A stretch of DNA of 64,000 bases from Escherichia phage CMSTMSU. Position 1 is the first letter of the stretch. Each line of letters starts with the position of its first letter. A program made the translations under genes and the position numbers. Shown here in pieces: positions 1-64,000 of the stretch. The DNA lies in sequence record MH494197.1, one strand, 5' to 3'. Below the pieces are notes generated by a model that was not told where the DNA came from, searched no databases, and saw only the letters and a program-made list of their open reading frames with translations.

Positions 1-452
1 GGCTGTTCCTGTGGTGCTGGTTGTGGAGCATTGTCAGGTTGAGCTTGTGGTGCAGGACGTTGTTGTTCTTCACCTTTATCATCATCACGATAATCATTCA
101 TCAAGTCACGTGCTGCTGCCAAGAGCAGAACCAACATCTTTAGGAGTAAAAGTACGACGACTGTTATTTCCCAGTGTTTTATATCAAGGTTATTTCCTTT
201 GAAGAATTGTGCAACATCAGCATATGGTACTGATGGCTGTGCTTTACCGTATTTGTGACCAACATAGCGTTTAAATTCAGCCCAAAGACGGTTTGCTTCT
301 GCACCAACTTCTTGTGCACCTTGTTCTATGACCACTACCGAAAAAGCCTTTTACTTTTCCTTTTGCACTATCTACTGCACTTTGTGAACGACTATATGGA
401 CGAGCTTCATTTAGCTCTTCATCATTATAGTCTAACATTTCATTAAGTATAC

Positions 453-988
453 TCATGTCTCAATCCTTTTACCAAAACCAGCACTCATATATTGAGAGTA
501 TTTATTGTCACTTTTAACTGCTTCAATCGCATCTTTAACTGTGGTTACAGCACGTTCTTCACCAGCTAAATCATGGCTGTCTTCTGGTTTGCCAAAATCA
601 ACACCAATTACTGGTTCGTAATCGTCAAAGTCAATATCATCTTCGAGTTCGGTCATTTCTTGTTGACGTGGTTCATCTTTACTACGTACACGGATTAGAG
701 CTTCAGTCATACTTAGTAGGTTGCCAATTTCATACATTAGTACGTTTGATTGAACACCACGGTGGCATTTGAAATCAAACATCCAAATTTCACCACAATC
801 TAATTCATAAAATCTAGTGGTCTTTCCATGAAAATAGTTTTCTTTAGTGCACCAATATCAAATGCATCATAACGATCCATTAGGCGTTGTGATACTTTAC
901 TTAGTTGCTCATTGGTAGGTTCAACTGCAAACTTGACTCGGTATTCAAAACTGGTTTTATCCGTTAGGATTTGTTGTAATCTATTCAT
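453..988 (-). CDS. hypothetical protein (two ORF fragments 800..988 and 453..782, probably one gene)
   Basis: Adjacent same-strand ORFs with acidic segment; no recognisable motif. Confidence 0.3.
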
Positions 989-1142
989 TTTAATAACTCC
1001 AGGTCGTTTAAGTTATTTATTTCTGTTCATTGCTGCAAGCATTTCATTGCAGGTTTTATGTGCTACCGCCTGTCCTTCGATGGCTGTTGGGTCACCAACT
1101 GATTCAGGTTTCTTAGTTTTAAGGTTTAGATCGATTTCCATC

Positions 1143-1475
1143 TTATCTTTCTTGGAGTTGAAGATCTACTAATTTAACGTCAGAATCAATGATTTTTGCA
1201 TGAGCATCGAGAGCAATTTTTAACATAGAGTTTGCAGCGTTAATCATTTCTGCTGCAAAACGGTCTTCACAGTTGAAAGCACGGTCGAAAATATCTTCAA
1301 ACTTACGTTCTGCCATCTGTGCTAAACGATCTAATTGAGTTTTTCTTGCTGTAATATCTGGAAGTTCACGCAACTGAACACGCATAGCTTTCAATTTTTC
1401 CATTGCAGCTTTTGCCTCTTCTAGTGAAATTTCAGTTTCACTCTGTTCATCTTCGTCATCCTGATACAAATCCAT
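1143..1475 (-). CDS. hypothetical acidic coiled-coil protein
   Basis: 110 aa ORF rich in E/K/A/L heptad-like sequence; function unknown. Confidence 0.3.
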   Translation of the reverse strand: MDLYQDDEDEQSETEISLEEAKAAMEKLKAMRVQLRELPDITARKTQLDRLAQMAERKFEDIFDRAFNCEDRFAAEMINAANSMLKIALDAHAKIIDSDVKLVDLQLQER

Positions 1476-1565
1476 CTCTGTATCTTCTTCAGGCTCGGCC
1501 TGTCATTTCCATCCATTGTTTAGCACTAGGTAATCCCAGTGCTTCATCTACTTGTTGTTTAGGTT

Positions 1566-1901
1566 TCATTTTTTATATAGATTCCTTTCTGTAATGATTT
1601 TAAATTCCAATCCGGTTATTTTTGCAAAATTCCATTGCATATACCCATTTTGATTGGTTAATCGCAACAGTGATTTTGTCTTTCTTGGATTTAGCCATTT
1701 CCATGTGACATTGTTTGTACGGTTTAACTTCCAGTACTTGAGCATGTTGTTTACCATCTGCACCAATATAAGTAAAAAATCAGGCCAGTACTGATGAACT
1801 GCATTATCAACTGGATTCACGTAAGGAATACTAAATGGTCCACACTCCACTCTATAACCGCAGGGTTGTTGTCTAAAGATATCATGATATCCTTTTCCCA
1901 A
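1566..1901 (-). CDS. hypothetical protein
   Basis: 111 aa minus-strand ORF, no recognisable motif. Confidence 0.3.
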
Positions 1902-2022
1902 GAACTACGGTATATAGGTTGGTTATTACTTTTATACTTTTGTATATTTTTATAGGGAAGATACCTTGAGCCTGTTTGGAGTTAGTAATCTTCGCTGGGT
2001 TAAACTGCTGGTTAAATGCCAT

Positions 2023-60697: not shown

Positions 60698-62647
60698 ATT
60701 CTACTCCTTTGTATATAAATTTACCAATATCTTCGATGTATAAACAGATTCCACCTCGATCATTTAACACAAGCCAATCACCAAAACCACAACTGATGTT
60801 GCATATATTAAATTCTTCAATACCATCCGGTGAATACGCAATGAATGGACATATTTCATCTGATATACCATTTACATAGTTATTACATATTAAATCAAAT
60901 GTATGTGAACTATAAGAATTATCAGTACTGAAAATGTGCATTAATGAACTAGATAGAATTACTATTGTTTTTCCCACATTTTTAAAAATCGTTATTCACA
61001 ACAACTACTCCATGTCAGTGTTGTAATGAAATTATATCACCGAATCAAGATATGTCTCATGAGATTCGCATTTCATCCAGATATAAACTACATGCTTCGA
61101 AATTGTTGTCAGCACTTAAACCTAAATCAACCATCAGACCACAATGCGTTCCACAGAATTTCTTTATGTATAGTTTCTTATTGTTTGTACTTAAGTCGTA
61201 TACATATTCATTTTCGAAAATAGTTTTAAATCATTACAAATACTTTTACTATCTTCATTACATCATTATGATACTCATATGGTATTCCATCTAGTTCATC
61301 AATGATAATAGCAAAACCATTGTCATAGTACTTTAGTTTATTGAATGTTTGTATATCCATTTAATATATAATCTCACTTACTTCTATGGTGTAGACACCA
61401 TCATCAGTCATTAATCTAACTGCAACTTTAATATTACTAGACATTCGTGTAACTATCAATCCAATAATTATACCATTCTTTAAAGTACCATTATGGTATC
61501 TAACTTTTACTTCAGTTTTATTATCAATTAAGTATCTTCTAATTATGTGTATTTCCGTTCTAAACAGTTCTAAATAAACTTCACTATACTCCTTATCAGA
61601 ACCATCAGCACAGCTATACAATAAATGTACCTGTTCTAACAAAAGTTTTAAATTCATAAGAACCTCACAGATTTAATATTACTTGTTACATGTTTAAACA
61701 CAGTGTTATCGAACTTGTAAACAATTGTATTAAGTGATTTATGAAAATTAACCTCACACTAATGCCTTGGAACCATTGATTGTACAGACCGTGGATGGTA
61801 AGTTGTTTGCTAATATCTCTTTTCATCTAAACATAGTGAACTAATACAATCATAATAGAGAGGTTCAAGAACTTTTCAGTACTAAGAAAATCGAAAGCAA
61901 GATCATCTATTTGTTTTATGTAATTGAATAAATTTTGATAGTACTCATTCATTGTCAATCCTCTTGAATTTAGCATTATTCGAATAAGTATATGAATGTC
62001 CAAAATCATTTACACCATGCACATTCAATACACCGTCGATGAAATAGATTCGGTCAATGGTGAGTTCACGTTTATAATCCGAATCATCATACCAGCACAG
62101 AACACGAATACCTTTATACTTTGTAGTTAGCTCTTTTCTAATGTAACTAAGTACTCGATATAACTTTTGAATAGCTCTAAGTCCTGCTCAAACATCATTG
62201 TTCCTCGTATAATTCCATGTCATCAACTCCAACTTGGCGAATTGCAGTACTTCTTTTAAATGTACCTTTTTCATATAAACATACAGTTAAACGTATTTCA
62301 CACTTCAATGCACTGTAATAAATCATATCAATAACACCATATGTTTCATACATTTCTAAGTATACATTTCGTCCTAAGTACTTTTCTTCTAAATCAGTAA
62401 TTAGACTATTGATAAGATTACCTATCTGTGTTATATCTGTGTGAAATTTATCCATTACAATAATCCTCTCACATAAAACATTGATGAAAATAGATAATCT
62501 TCAGTACTGGAATTTAGTAGTTTATCAAAACTATAATTTTTATGCTTATTTTCATACAAAGACATTCTATAGTATCGTTCTATATTTTCTAAGTAGTCTT
62601 TTCGTAATAACATCTGTGTTGTTACATTCACTATAATGTACCTTAAA

Positions 62648-62680
62648 AGAAAAAGGGACCAATATATGATCCCTTTGTAT
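62648..62680 (-). terminator. hairpin terminator downstream of pnk
   Basis: aagggac caatatatga tccctt inverted repeat. Confidence 0.4.
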
Positions 62681-62711
62681 TAGAAATTTCCTTCAGCCAC
62701 TTGGAAAACTT

Positions 62712-63600
62712 TCAACCCAAGTAGCTTACGCCACATGAACACAACTTGATTGCGGTCATCATATACCTTTTAACATCGTAATGATCAACCACATTTTTCA
62801 TGTACAGGTCGAATTTGACAACATCATCAGGACGTTTATCATCAATGTCTCGCATAAACAATGCATCGTAAGGAATACCCCAATTCTTAAGCCACTGTTC
62901 GGTATCAGCACGACACCCTTCAGTACGCCCACTCATGACGATAATCTTGCGTTTATGAAAACTGCTTCTGCGATAATAGACAAAATAACTTCTTCGTCTG
63001 GTGTATCCGAGTACAGTACTTTCATCGAACGGGTTACGTCCCCATTTATGAGCAAGAGTACCGTCGATATCAACGATAATAGCAGCTTCTCGTGAATTAC
63101 CATAGTAACCAATGTGTAATGCCTTACTATAATAGTACGTATCTGCCATAGTGTCAATGATATTATCTTGTACTGAACGCTCACGCTGGAGGTTATATTT
63201 CTTACAAAGTTTTACGAACTCTTTAATCTTAAAGAATTCATGAACATCTGCACCACGGTCTTCATTAGGTACAAAATCATCATAGAAGTTCTTTTCTTTG
63301 TAATCATAACCATTATCTATAGCCCATACTTTCCATAGATTACGGAAATGTTGTTTAAGGTTTGTATCGGATATGATGATGTTCCAACCATTCTCTGCTG
63401 CTGAATTTGCTGCACTGAACTGTAAATTAGTTACGTACTGCTCATTAGCATCGTTGAATTTGTAAGCATCATGTGACCCAGCCATAGATTCACGAATATC
63501 ATCACGGTTGATGTTGATAGTCTTGGATTTGGCTTTTTAATCTCTTGCACTGCCCATGTAGTTTTACCACACCGTGCAATCCAACTGTTAGTGTGATAGT
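62712..63600 (-). CDS. pseT: polynucleotide 5'-kinase / 3'-phosphatase (T4 PseT-like), frameshift in P-loop region
   Basis: IIISDTNLKQ, IIVDIDGTLAHKWGRNPFDE, IIVMSGRTEG, DKRPDDVVK closely parallel T4 Pnk VIISDTNLNP, VIFDVDGTLAKMNGRGPYD, IVVVSGRESG, RKDDVVK; CGKTTWA P-loop recovered in shifted frame upstream. Confidence 0.85.
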
Positions 63601-63635
63601 TGGCATCCTTTAATCCTCTAAAAATTTAACATGCT

Positions 63636-63956
63636 CTATATTATGATAGGTGAGCCATTCCTGTGGTGTTCCTTGCGTATTAAAACACCAATATACGCAA
63701 TACCATTAATTAGACCATTACTATCAGTATTCACATCAACTTTCACAATCTCGGAATCGTACCAGTGTTTGAATGTGTAATCCCAACATCTGACTTTCTT
63801 TCCAATAAGATTGCTCTTGTATTTGTCAATCATTTCATCGACGATAGTTTGTACTGAATTTTTAATTTCATCTTCTACTGACTTTATATATAGTAAATTA
63901 CTTTGTGCATTGTTTATCATTGTATTTCCCAATCCCAAATCGCTTGAGATTTTCAC
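63636..63956 (-). CDS. hypothetical protein
   Basis: 106 aa ORF. Confidence 0.3.
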   Translation of the reverse strand: MKISSDLGLGNTMINNAQSNLLYIKSVEDEIKNSVQTIVDEMIDKYKSNLIGKKVRCWDYTFKHWYDSEIVKVDVNTDSNGLINGIAYIGVLIRKEHHRNGSPIII

Positions 63957-64000
63957 AAGTACAGATTCATCACAACGAATACTAGCAGTATCATTGGATG

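Follow-up and report, generated by a model that had tools for sequence, protein, structure and literature searches.

Among the systems described to date, the one closest to the element studied here is HIP1 (Highly Iterated Palindrome 1, GCGATCGC) of cyanobacteria. The accessible parts of two reports on it (PMC5861425, PMC4390886) describe a short palindrome resembling a restriction site that is hyper-abundant throughout the genome, in coding as well as non-coding DNA and in all reading frames, that is conserved above what codon context predicts and that is lineage-specific; its function is still unknown, and orphan methyltransferases are suspected to be involved. The hexamer AGTACT shows the sequence properties of this class in a stretch of 64,000 nucleotides from Escherichia phage CMSTMSU (MH494197.1), which we refer to in its full length as the window, and in the relatives of that phage. 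We tentatively interpret AGTACT, with somewhat less than even confidence, as the recognition site of a clade-specific, symmetric protein binding to double-stranded DNA, which would act on early promoters in the manner of an operator and would also mark the genome as a whole.

The first-pass annotation had estimated by eye that AGTACT is strongly over-represented across the window, and an exact count of all hexamers against Markov expectations bears this out. The word occurs 163 times (2.55 per kb), where 21.5 occurrences are expected from base composition, 19.0 from a first-order and 61 from a third-order Markov model. In 100 dinucleotide-preserving shuffles of the window it was found 19.03±4.06 times, with a maximum of 28, and the enrichment thus amounts to 8.6-fold with z ~35. 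AGTACT ranks first of all 4096 hexamers, both by count and by z-score and with either Markov model, and the next words in line, CAGTAC and GTACTG, are its own extensions. The sites are distributed evenly along the window, with 8-13 per 4 kb between the first at 1733 and the last at 63015, and the largest gap of 1402 bp is shorter than random placement would yield (P=0.004). The coefficient of variation (CV) of the spacing is 0.845, versus 0.99±0.08 for random placement (P=0.014), and most slices tested were likewise more regular than random (CV 0.78-0.90 versus 0.99), the slice from Yersinia phage fHe-Yen9-04 being without such regularity (CV 1.03). Hardly any 12-mer context recurs among the sites, and none has more than 3 copies, which rules out a dispersed repeat, a mobile element or paralogy as an artefactual source. 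Outside the hexamer, information content is confined to the adjoining 1 to 4 bases on either side. The local counts given beforehand were reproduced exactly for 30001-32000 (5 sites) and for 45000-46200 (6 sites), while the 6 sites assigned to the nrdD gene have to be corrected to 5. The first two of the following features carry these counts, and the third is the densest local cluster of the window.

30001..32000, minus strand: five AGTACT sites (30507, 30534, 31573, 31677, 31995) in a hypothetical-protein gene of ~2.7 kb
37129..38929, minus strand: nrdD (anaerobic ribonucleotide reductase), mapped by BLAST from the annotation of Escherichia phage EC.P1 and interrupted by assembly indels, with AGTACT at 37546, 37677, 38288, 38451 and 38590
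54776..54926, minus strand: four AGTACT sites within 151 bp (54776, 54810, 54831, 54921), around which no promoter-like context was seen

The excess becomes more striking in view of the extreme avoidance of palindromes in this lineage. Palindromic hexamers had been said to be usually depleted in phages, and here 23 of the 64 are absent from the window, where ~94 occurrences are expected in total, while AGTACT deviates in the opposite direction. The missing words include CCATGG, GCATGC, TGGCCA, CAGCTG, CTGCAG, GGTACC and GGATCC. Among shorter palindromes GCGC is found 0 times versus 26-37 expected, GGCC 14 times versus 22-46 and GATC 102 times versus ~200. To judge from these counts, this phage lineage evidently relies on restriction-site avoidance, with an extreme avoidance of GC-containing palindromes.

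The retention of 163 ScaI-type sites in a genome that has eliminated 23 palindromic hexamers would call for protection at these sites, and it lends itself to a reading that we regard as unlikely overall, namely that AGTACT is an epigenetic mark. A phage methyltransferase would methylate AGTACT or its GTAC core, and the dense sites would constitute a methylation-state signal. This could serve to discriminate old from new strands or self from foreign DNA, in the way GATC is used by Dam, SeqA and MutH in E. coli, to operate methylation-sensitive early promoters or to protect against restriction of the ScaI/Eco255I type. AGTACT is a typical type II palindrome, and two orphan methyltransferases are encoded, a C5 enzyme (PF00145) and a Dam-family enzyme (PF05869). 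The latter is one candidate, and its gene has a conserved position beside a cytidylyltransferase gene in the related phages PBECO4 and GAP32. With about one site per 390 bp, the density of AGTACT is of the same order as that of GATC in E. coli, which is about one per 250 bp. The PF05869 family is, however, widespread in unrelated phages that show no enrichment of AGTACT, and a Dam-family methyltransferase is thereby also ruled out as a clade-specific marker. Methylation alone, moreover, gives no reason for an enrichment of sites. The accessible part of a report on the related Klebsiella phage RaK2 (PMC3622015) describes restriction-resistant DNA, in line with methylation, but also states that the C5 enzyme of that phage acts at CpG. 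For the DNA of the close relative fEgEco12, normal cleavage by ten restriction enzymes other than ScaI is stated in the accessible text of its description (PMC13070987).

The quality of the sequence itself bears on this question. The window is ~98-99% identical to EC.P1 (98.8%) and to the close relatives Turkey3, WPEC3, fEgEco12 and Ecwhy_1, and shares ~79% identity with the PBECO4/121Q group; by sequence comparison its source is a member of the Asteriusvirus-type group of jumbo myoviruses, with genomes of 350-380 kb. Relative to EC.P1 it carries ~250 short deletions, mostly of 1-3 nucleotides, that are concentrated at A/T homopolymers and at CCWGG, and 22 of 23 Dcm sites (CCWGG; 96%) are mis-called in this comparison. 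Such a signature implies an unpolished assembly of the nanopore type, apparently made from Dcm-methylated phage DNA with ordinary cytosine. At AGTACT, in contrast, indels were found in 3 of 120 sites (2.5%) and a substitution in 1 of 120, at or below background. This is weak evidence against a modification of the site that would perturb the sequencing signal, weak because GATC is unaffected as well. The assembly errors do not involve AGTACT, and an assembly artefact as its source is ruled out, as the same sites are present in the independently sequenced EC.P1, PBECO4, phAPEC6 and fEgEco12. As a separate observation, the substitutions that distinguish the window from EC.P1 fall preferentially into TGCG and TGCC contexts (TGCGG, TGCCC, CTGCG, TTGCG). 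These could be true hot spots of single-nucleotide polymorphism or base-calling errors at a 5-methylcytosine motif of the phage C5 methyltransferase.

Due to the deletions at homopolymers and CCWGG, long genes, including nrdD, are broken in the list of open reading frames of the window (translation table 11). Stop-codon recoding was ruled out as the cause, as the breaks are mostly deletions of 1-3 nucleotides with respect to EC.P1. We therefore carried out all codon-level tests on the annotated stretch 230000-279999 of EC.P1, which is 98.5% identical and covers positions 1-48,337 of the window. This stretch of 50 kb contains 124 AGTACT sites, 114 of them within genes. When synonymous codons were shuffled such that all proteins and the codon usage of each gene were kept, 29.4±4.8 sites remained, with a maximum of 43, and shuffling the order of codons left 18.1±4.0. 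The gap between the two controls (29 versus 18) suggests that the order of amino acids itself has been nudged toward sequences in which AGTACT can be encoded. All three codon phases are used, as had been claimed: AGT-ACT (Ser-Thr) at 56 sites, xxA-GTA-CTx (Val-Leu) at 40 and xAG-TAC-Txx at 18. Ser-Thr dipeptides are written AGT-ACT in 55% of cases versus ~15% expected, and Val-Leu dipeptides are written GTA-CTN in 58% versus ~20%. The density is 2.46 per kb in non-coding and 2.48 per kb in coding DNA, and the intragenic sites of the window show no preference for a position along the gene.

The count is far beyond what synonymous shuffles produce, which places the enrichment at the level of the nucleotide sequence. 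The earlier suggestion of selection at the DNA level is thus upheld; neither a ratio of observed to expected near 1-2 nor the same ratio in codon-shuffled controls was found. An effect at the level of translation or RNA, by codon-pair preference, by the usage of phage tRNAs or by an AGUACU signal in mRNA, retains next to no probability in our view. AGT, ACT and GTA are abundant codons here, and RaK2 possesses its own tRNA-Ser and tRNA-Thr according to the accessible part of its report (PMC3622015). An effect of this kind would nevertheless have to account for the use of all frames and for the equal density outside genes, in addition to the failure of the shuffles. It is further at odds with the roughly symmetric flanks of the sites in a genome transcribed in one direction, and with the variant segments described below, where the orientation flips while the gene strand does not change. 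On the basis of these comparisons AGTACT is, in our assessment, maintained by natural selection on the sequence of double-stranded DNA rather than via codons or peptides.

The trait has a well-defined distribution among related phages and hosts, as the following counts of AGTACT show.

PBECO4, homologous 50 kb: 115 found, 13.5 expected
PBECO4, whole genome of 348 kb: 891 found, ~100 expected
Yersinia phage fHe-Yen9-04, 42.6 kb: 95 found, 10.6 expected
Klebsiella phage RaK2, 50 kb: 119 found, 12.0 expected
Cronobacter phage GAP32, 50 kb: 253 found, 13.8 expected
CBB-like contig from IMG/VR: 5.6-7.5 per kb found, 0.3-0.35 per kb expected
Pseudomonas phage PA5oct, 100,001-150,000 (33% GC): 3 found, 14.3 expected
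Xanthomonas phage XacN1, 42 kb: 0 found, 9.2 expected
Phage T4, 50 kb: 12 found, 8.5±3.4 expected
E. coli K-12, 50 kb: 3 found, 4.8 expected

AGTACT is also the top hexamer of the whole PBECO4 genome, and its density per kb in phage DNA is ~40-fold that in host DNA. The separation into AGTACT-rich and AGTACT-poor genomes confines the trait to the Enterobacterales-infecting branch of the RaK2-like jumbo phages; as far as these genomes show, it is not a general property of the wider phage family, of the host or of AT-rich coliphages. An analogous iterated palindrome was not found in PA5oct, where the top words, TGCAGA/TCTGCA and ATGCAG (~4-fold), are non-palindromic and within the normal range of codon effects. 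Within the library searched, no publication was found that reports the enrichment or connects AGTACT or ScaI sites with these phages; the RaK2, CBB, Sharanji and fEgEco12 genome papers were covered by keyword.

This restriction to one group of hosts raises the question of a host factor. Hosts of the genera Pseudomonas and Xanthomonas, whose phages lack the enrichment that the Enterobacterales phages display, are to our knowledge devoid of the protein SlmA, and AGTACT forms the central six bases of the SlmA site, GTGAGTACTCAC. The phage might thus load or titrate SlmA and thereby steer host cell division. The SlmA site is described as a 12-bp palindrome, GTRAGYRCTYAC, whose consensus contains AGTACT and in which G1, T2, A4 and G5 are essential and position 3 is a purine (PMC3020112). 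At the sites of PBECO4, however, flanks of the kind that SlmA needs are about three times rarer than expected, with GTR on the left found 8 times versus 25 expected and YAC on the right likewise 8 versus 25. At least four of six flank positions match at 31 sites versus 79 expected, five match at 2 and all six at 0 of the 891. Phage T4, which shares the host, shows no enrichment. With flanks that run opposite to the requirement of the protein, mimicry of SlmA sites was rejected, and we consider a role of this host factor most improbable.

Individual sites are conserved in place. In aligned columns of EC.P1 and PBECO4, which share 85% identity, 66-71% of AGTACT are kept versus 45% for all hexamers, and the single substitution among the 120 sites compared between the window and EC.P1 (0.8%) stands against 5% of hexamers in general. 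The tail-sheath gene contains 6-11 AGTACT per genus in four genera, at an amino acid identity of 67-73%. At two columns of its alignment AGTACT is present in every one of these genera; no site occurs in the orthologue from PA5oct. Turnover, with ~30% of the sites being clade-specific, accompanies what appears from these alignments to be purifying selection on individual sites.

The immediate flanks of the hexamer are not random. In the window, C is found at position -1 in 81 and G at +6 in 71 of the 163 sites, and CAGTACTG occurs 36 times. In PBECO4 (n=889), C occupies -1 at 417 and G occupies +6 at 382 sites, with TTC on the left at 104 and GAA on the right at 84 sites. A G at -1, the rarest base there (~6%), is avoided throughout the four genera, as is a C at +6. 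A T-rich left flank is mirrored by an A-rich right flank, so that the sites form a loose palindrome of 12-14 bp, TTCAGTACTGAA, although small differences between left and right are still detected by formal tests at most flank positions in PBECO4. Since the preferences are alike on both sides while nearly all genes lie on one strand and the strands differ in composition, recognition of the duplex by a protein with two-fold symmetry is favored, and the rough symmetry speaks against a signal at the level of RNA or of a single strand. Extended hairpins or terminators were excluded, as 583 of 891 PBECO4 sites have no additional palindromic arm beyond the hexamer. The idea that AGTACT marks a site for a DNA-binding, modifying or nicking activity of the phage therefore stands in part: symmetric flanks and positional conservation across genera support a functional site, but a binder, methylase or nickase specific for AGTACT could not be pinned down.

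Conservation and local sequence context also bear on a mutational or repair drive, in which a process resembling very-short-patch repair, or biased gene conversion, would generate AGTACT without benefit to the phage. In E. coli, CCWGG becomes enriched through very-short-patch repair at the expense of its deamination neighbours. The accessible part of one report (PMC4390886) presents this as a proposed route to the over-representation of CCWGG and discusses it for cyanobacterial HIP1, and the turnover of AGTACT between clades would be compatible with it. However, none of the 18 one-mismatch neighbours of AGTACT displays the expected pattern of depletion. Sixteen are at or above expectation (0.96-3.2-fold), among them the transition neighbours AGTATT (1.08) and AATACT (1.30), and only AGGACT (0.52) and AGTCCT (0.80) are below it. 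The conservation of existing sites above background is equally unexpected for such a drive, as are whole segments devoid of AGTACT and the fixed positions at promoters. A repair drive is thus already disfavoured and appears very unlikely.

Where the density of AGTACT is highest, the sites assume a defined position. The termini of fEgEco12 were mapped with PhageTerm and by restriction digests, as stated in the accessible text of PMC13070987, and its direct terminal repeat (PP777464, 1-20,993; ~21 kb) contains 138 AGTACT, or 6.6 per kb, the density maximum. In PBECO4 a peak of 4.5-6.7 per kb is found between 130 and 160 kb, and by comparison with fEgEco12 this peak region (~133-154 kb) is the corresponding direct terminal repeat of ~21 kb. 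The repeat of fEgEco12 comprises ~22 near-consensus sigma70 promoters that point inward. In most of them AGTACT immediately precedes the -10 box, and in some a copy immediately precedes the -35 box as well. They usually read TTGACA-N9-AGTACT-G-TATAAT, with AGTACT-GG-CATAAT as a variant, and a second site is often present as cAGTACTA-TTGACA. An early promoter of fEgEco12 is given as an example.

fEgEco12, 14072: early promoter with the sequence TTGACAAAGTATCTTAGTACTGTATAAT

Among 29 perfect matches to TTGACA-N15-19-TATAAT in PBECO4, 13 contain AGTACT within a spacer whose sequence varies otherwise, and in 11 of these the offset is identical, as AGTACT(G)-TATAAT. In fEgEco12, AGTACT is present in the spacers of 17 of 29 near-consensus promoters found within the first 45 kb. 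Promoters of GAP32 annotated in GenBank read AGTACT-TTGACA-N10-AGTACT-T-TATAAT. The distances between sites peak at 20-22 bp, equivalent to two helical turns. In the terminal repeat of the relatives AGTACT is, to judge from its placement, a fixed element of early promoters of the sigma70 type. A scan of IMG/VR with the dual-site promoter pattern returned motif-dense matches only for GAP32 and the CBB-like contig, the rest being due to chance. A resemblance to LexA half-sites (CAGTA/TACTG) was dismissed upon reading of the promoter sequences, because the order of the half-sites does not fit and the distal one is missing. AGTACT in -35/-10 regions resembles the situation at Dam-controlled promoters and is thus a point in favor of methylation.

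Note that this fixed placement is established in relatives, outside of the window. Within it, few sites adjoin -10-like boxes, for example the following.

8414..8419, minus strand: AGTACT directly upstream of a -10-like box, in the arrangement AGTACT-TATATAAT-N5-GGAG-N7-ATG (ribosome-binding site and start codon)
41533..41594, minus strand: three AGTACT around a gene start (41572 and 41589 among them), in the arrangement GAAACG-N16-AGTACT-GTTATAGT-GGC-AGTACT-TTTAATTGGAG-N7-ATG

In the trio at 41533..41594, AGTACT is again found directly upstream of a -10-like box, and the third site is located 13 bases inside the gene. A class of promoters with a -35-like TGAAACG element is described for CBB and GAP32 in the accessible part of PMC5259590.

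Next to the terminal repeat the pattern changes altogether. In fEgEco12, the last AGTACT is located at 20,857, ~140 bp short of the inner repeat boundary, and the next site is found at 26,616. A short cluster follows, and AGTACT is then absent again from ~29.0 to 37.5 kb. Both AGTACT-free segments instead contain many copies of a one-sided variant, TGTACT or AGTACA, along with some TGTACA, and each segment uses one orientation, opposite to that of the other. In PBECO4 (NC_027364) the segment 116,608-124,301 contains 44 TGTACT versus 3.7 expected, and its plus strand holds 47 GTACT and 0 AGTAC. The segment 126,954-132,598 contains 13 AGTACA versus 1.5 expected and is nearly devoid of GTACT. The one-sided variants occur in all three codon frames, the gene strand is the same in both segments, and the pattern is retained in phAPEC6, EC.P1 (~329-346 kb) and fEgEco12, from which we conclude that it is real and old. 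Judging from these segments, selection can act locally against the complete palindrome, and an oriented half-site has a value of its own.

The one-sided segments keep alive those models in which AGTACT is read on one strand or in one direction. The unit would then be GTACT, or AGTAC on the opposite strand, recognized by a translocating or strand-specific machine, be it as a Chi-like attenuator of a nuclease/recombination complex, a primase site or a guide for packaging or replication, and the palindrome would be the most economical way of presenting GTACT on both strands. In support of this, the two conserved segments carry one-sided variants only, in opposite orientations and in all frames on the same gene strand, and the first of them starts at the inner boundary of the terminal repeat that was mapped experimentally (accessible text of PMC13070987). 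The spacing is more even than random, with long gaps missing, and the density is highest near the genome ends, reaching its maximum in the repeat. In the bulk of the genome, however, it is the palindrome that is enriched 8.6-fold, while the non-palindromic half-forms reach only ~1.4-3-fold, and the roughly symmetric flanks beyond the hexamer favor a dimer on duplex DNA. A fixed position beside the -35 and -10 boxes would be unexpected for a primase or Chi-like site, and RecBCD of E. coli recognizes another sequence. Taken together, we rate a directional signal as distinctly unlikely.

The region of the variant segments also holds a tandem head-to-tail array of ~27 paralogous genes for proteins of 66-97 amino acids with a conserved LGTNYQE motif (PHROG 4148, of unknown function). 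It is located directly inside the terminal repeat, at 125,988-131,883 in PBECO4 and at ~21.1-27.3 kb in fEgEco12, and many of its genes are missing from the RefSeq annotation of PBECO4. The small proteins of the two variant segments matched only PHROG families of unknown function, and a search for an origin-like structure between the segments brought up only the repeats of the paralogues.

From the enrichment, its independence of codons and proteins, the conservation of sites, the clade distribution, the symmetry of the flanks and the placement in promoters we infer that a protein binds to AGTACT, and it is from these observations that a role for it can be proposed. AGTACT would be the core of the site of a protein with two-fold symmetry, with the extended consensus TTCAGTACTGAA, and this lineage-specific protein would be encoded by the phage or carried in the virion. 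At early promoters, with AGTACT directly upstream of -35 and -10, two sites spaced by 20-22 bp would present bound protein on one face of the helix, and the protein could act there as on an operator, for example in shutting off early transcription. The ~900 intragenic and intergenic copies per genome, of which 163 are in the window, would provide a genome-wide mark or loading platform that could serve to organize, coat or identify phage DNA.

Several points weigh against the symmetric binder. The annotated candidates, two methyltransferases, several endonucleases and a sigma factor, are not diagnostic, and no binder was found among them. An operator function does not readily account for ~2.5 sites per kb inside genes, or for the passage of transcription and replication through them. 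Promoter-associated sites are a minority of all AGTACT and are rare in the window. A purely symmetric binder, finally, does not predict the two AGTACT-free segments with one-sided TGTACT or AGTACA. A broader view would accommodate these segments, namely that AGTACT is a cis-code read by a dedicated phage factor, in which a self-mark and a gate for early promoters are combined with segments that change over to one-sided variants exactly at the repeat boundary and help to define genome ends or the direction of DNA transactions. We regard this as possible, if doubtful. If true, a genome-wide cis-code would be a new kind of organizing element for large viral genomes.

The 'endonuclease' gp306 of PBECO4 was considered as a cognate nuclease and rejected, as it is a mobile gene of the homing type with a patchy distribution and does not belong to the core of the clade. 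Other genes were noted in the region. The window contains orthologues of PBECO4 gp055 and gp086 at ~19,400-19,900 and ~42,600-43,500, which encode a ferritin/Dps-like protein (DUF5856, annotated as 'starvation-inducible transcriptional regulator') and a WGR-domain protein, and the annotation of PBECO4 places Sir2, macro-domain, PhoH-like and Nudix genes in this stretch as well. None of the DUF5856, WGR, Sir2, macro-domain, PhoH-like and Nudix genes could be tied to AGTACT.

Whatever reads the motif, phages normally purge palindromes of the restriction type and this lineage does so to an extreme degree, yet one such word is its commonest hexamer. The trait has persisted in no fewer than four genera, with different Enterobacterales as hosts, and codon choice and even amino acid sequence are bent to accommodate it. 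This would imply a strong, previously unrecognized function that acts on ~900 sites per genome and is tied to the architecture of early promoters and to the terminal repeat. The reader of AGTACT would expose a new layer of jumbo-phage biology, be it genome marking, temporal control of transcription or the definition of genome ends. In practical terms, ScaI fingerprinting would offer a simple diagnostic for the clade, the density of AGTACT is a ready marker for it in metagenomes, and the motif has to be taken into account when these phages are recoded synthetically.

In comparison with known systems, Chi, KOPS and DNA uptake sequences share with AGTACT the character of short words at high and fairly even density, which serve to distinguish self from foreign DNA and co-evolve with the machine that reads them. 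These words are asymmetric and either oriented with replication or read on one strand, whereas AGTACT reads the same on both strands and has flanks that are roughly symmetric too. A polarity of the Chi or KOPS type was absent from the window, oriented variants being found only in the two segments of the relatives. SlmA sites, GTGAGTACTCAC, resemble the phage sites in that they are palindromic, have AGTACT at the center and are scattered over the genome rather than placed at promoters, and SlmA is a dimeric helix-turn-helix protein. Their number in E. coli is only in the tens, however, compared to ~900 AGTACT per phage genome, and the flanks that SlmA requires are the ones depleted about three-fold at the phage sites. 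TF1 of phage SPO1 and p6 of phage phi29, both abundant, bind to the phage genome over its full length and in addition repress early promoters, a dual role that by analogy would be the one proposed for the AGTACT binder. TF1 recognizes DNA containing hydroxymethyluracil and p6 responds to bendability rather than to a defined hexamer, and neither is known to us to have driven the enrichment of a specific palindrome. GATC, with its readers Dam, SeqA and MutH, is likewise a palindrome of broadly similar density that is read genome-wide and also within some promoters. In E. coli it occurs at roughly random frequency, and in this phage, unlike AGTACT, it is itself depleted two-fold.

HIP1 remains the nearest relative in kind. 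AGTACT shares with it the traits of sequence statistics that define its class, as it is the top-ranked palindrome, is abundant independently of codons and is conserved above background. HIP1 is an 8-mer of cellular genomes, with an enrichment of 15-300-fold in the accessible parts of the HIP1 reports, whereas AGTACT is a 6-mer of virus genomes enriched ~8-18-fold. Unlike HIP1, AGTACT is a fixed element of early promoters and is replaced by one-sided variants in segments beside the terminal repeat, and we know of no report of a promoter role or of one-sided segments for HIP1. The phage palindrome could thus inform the 25-year-old puzzle of cyanobacterial HIP1, in a system with tractable infection genetics.

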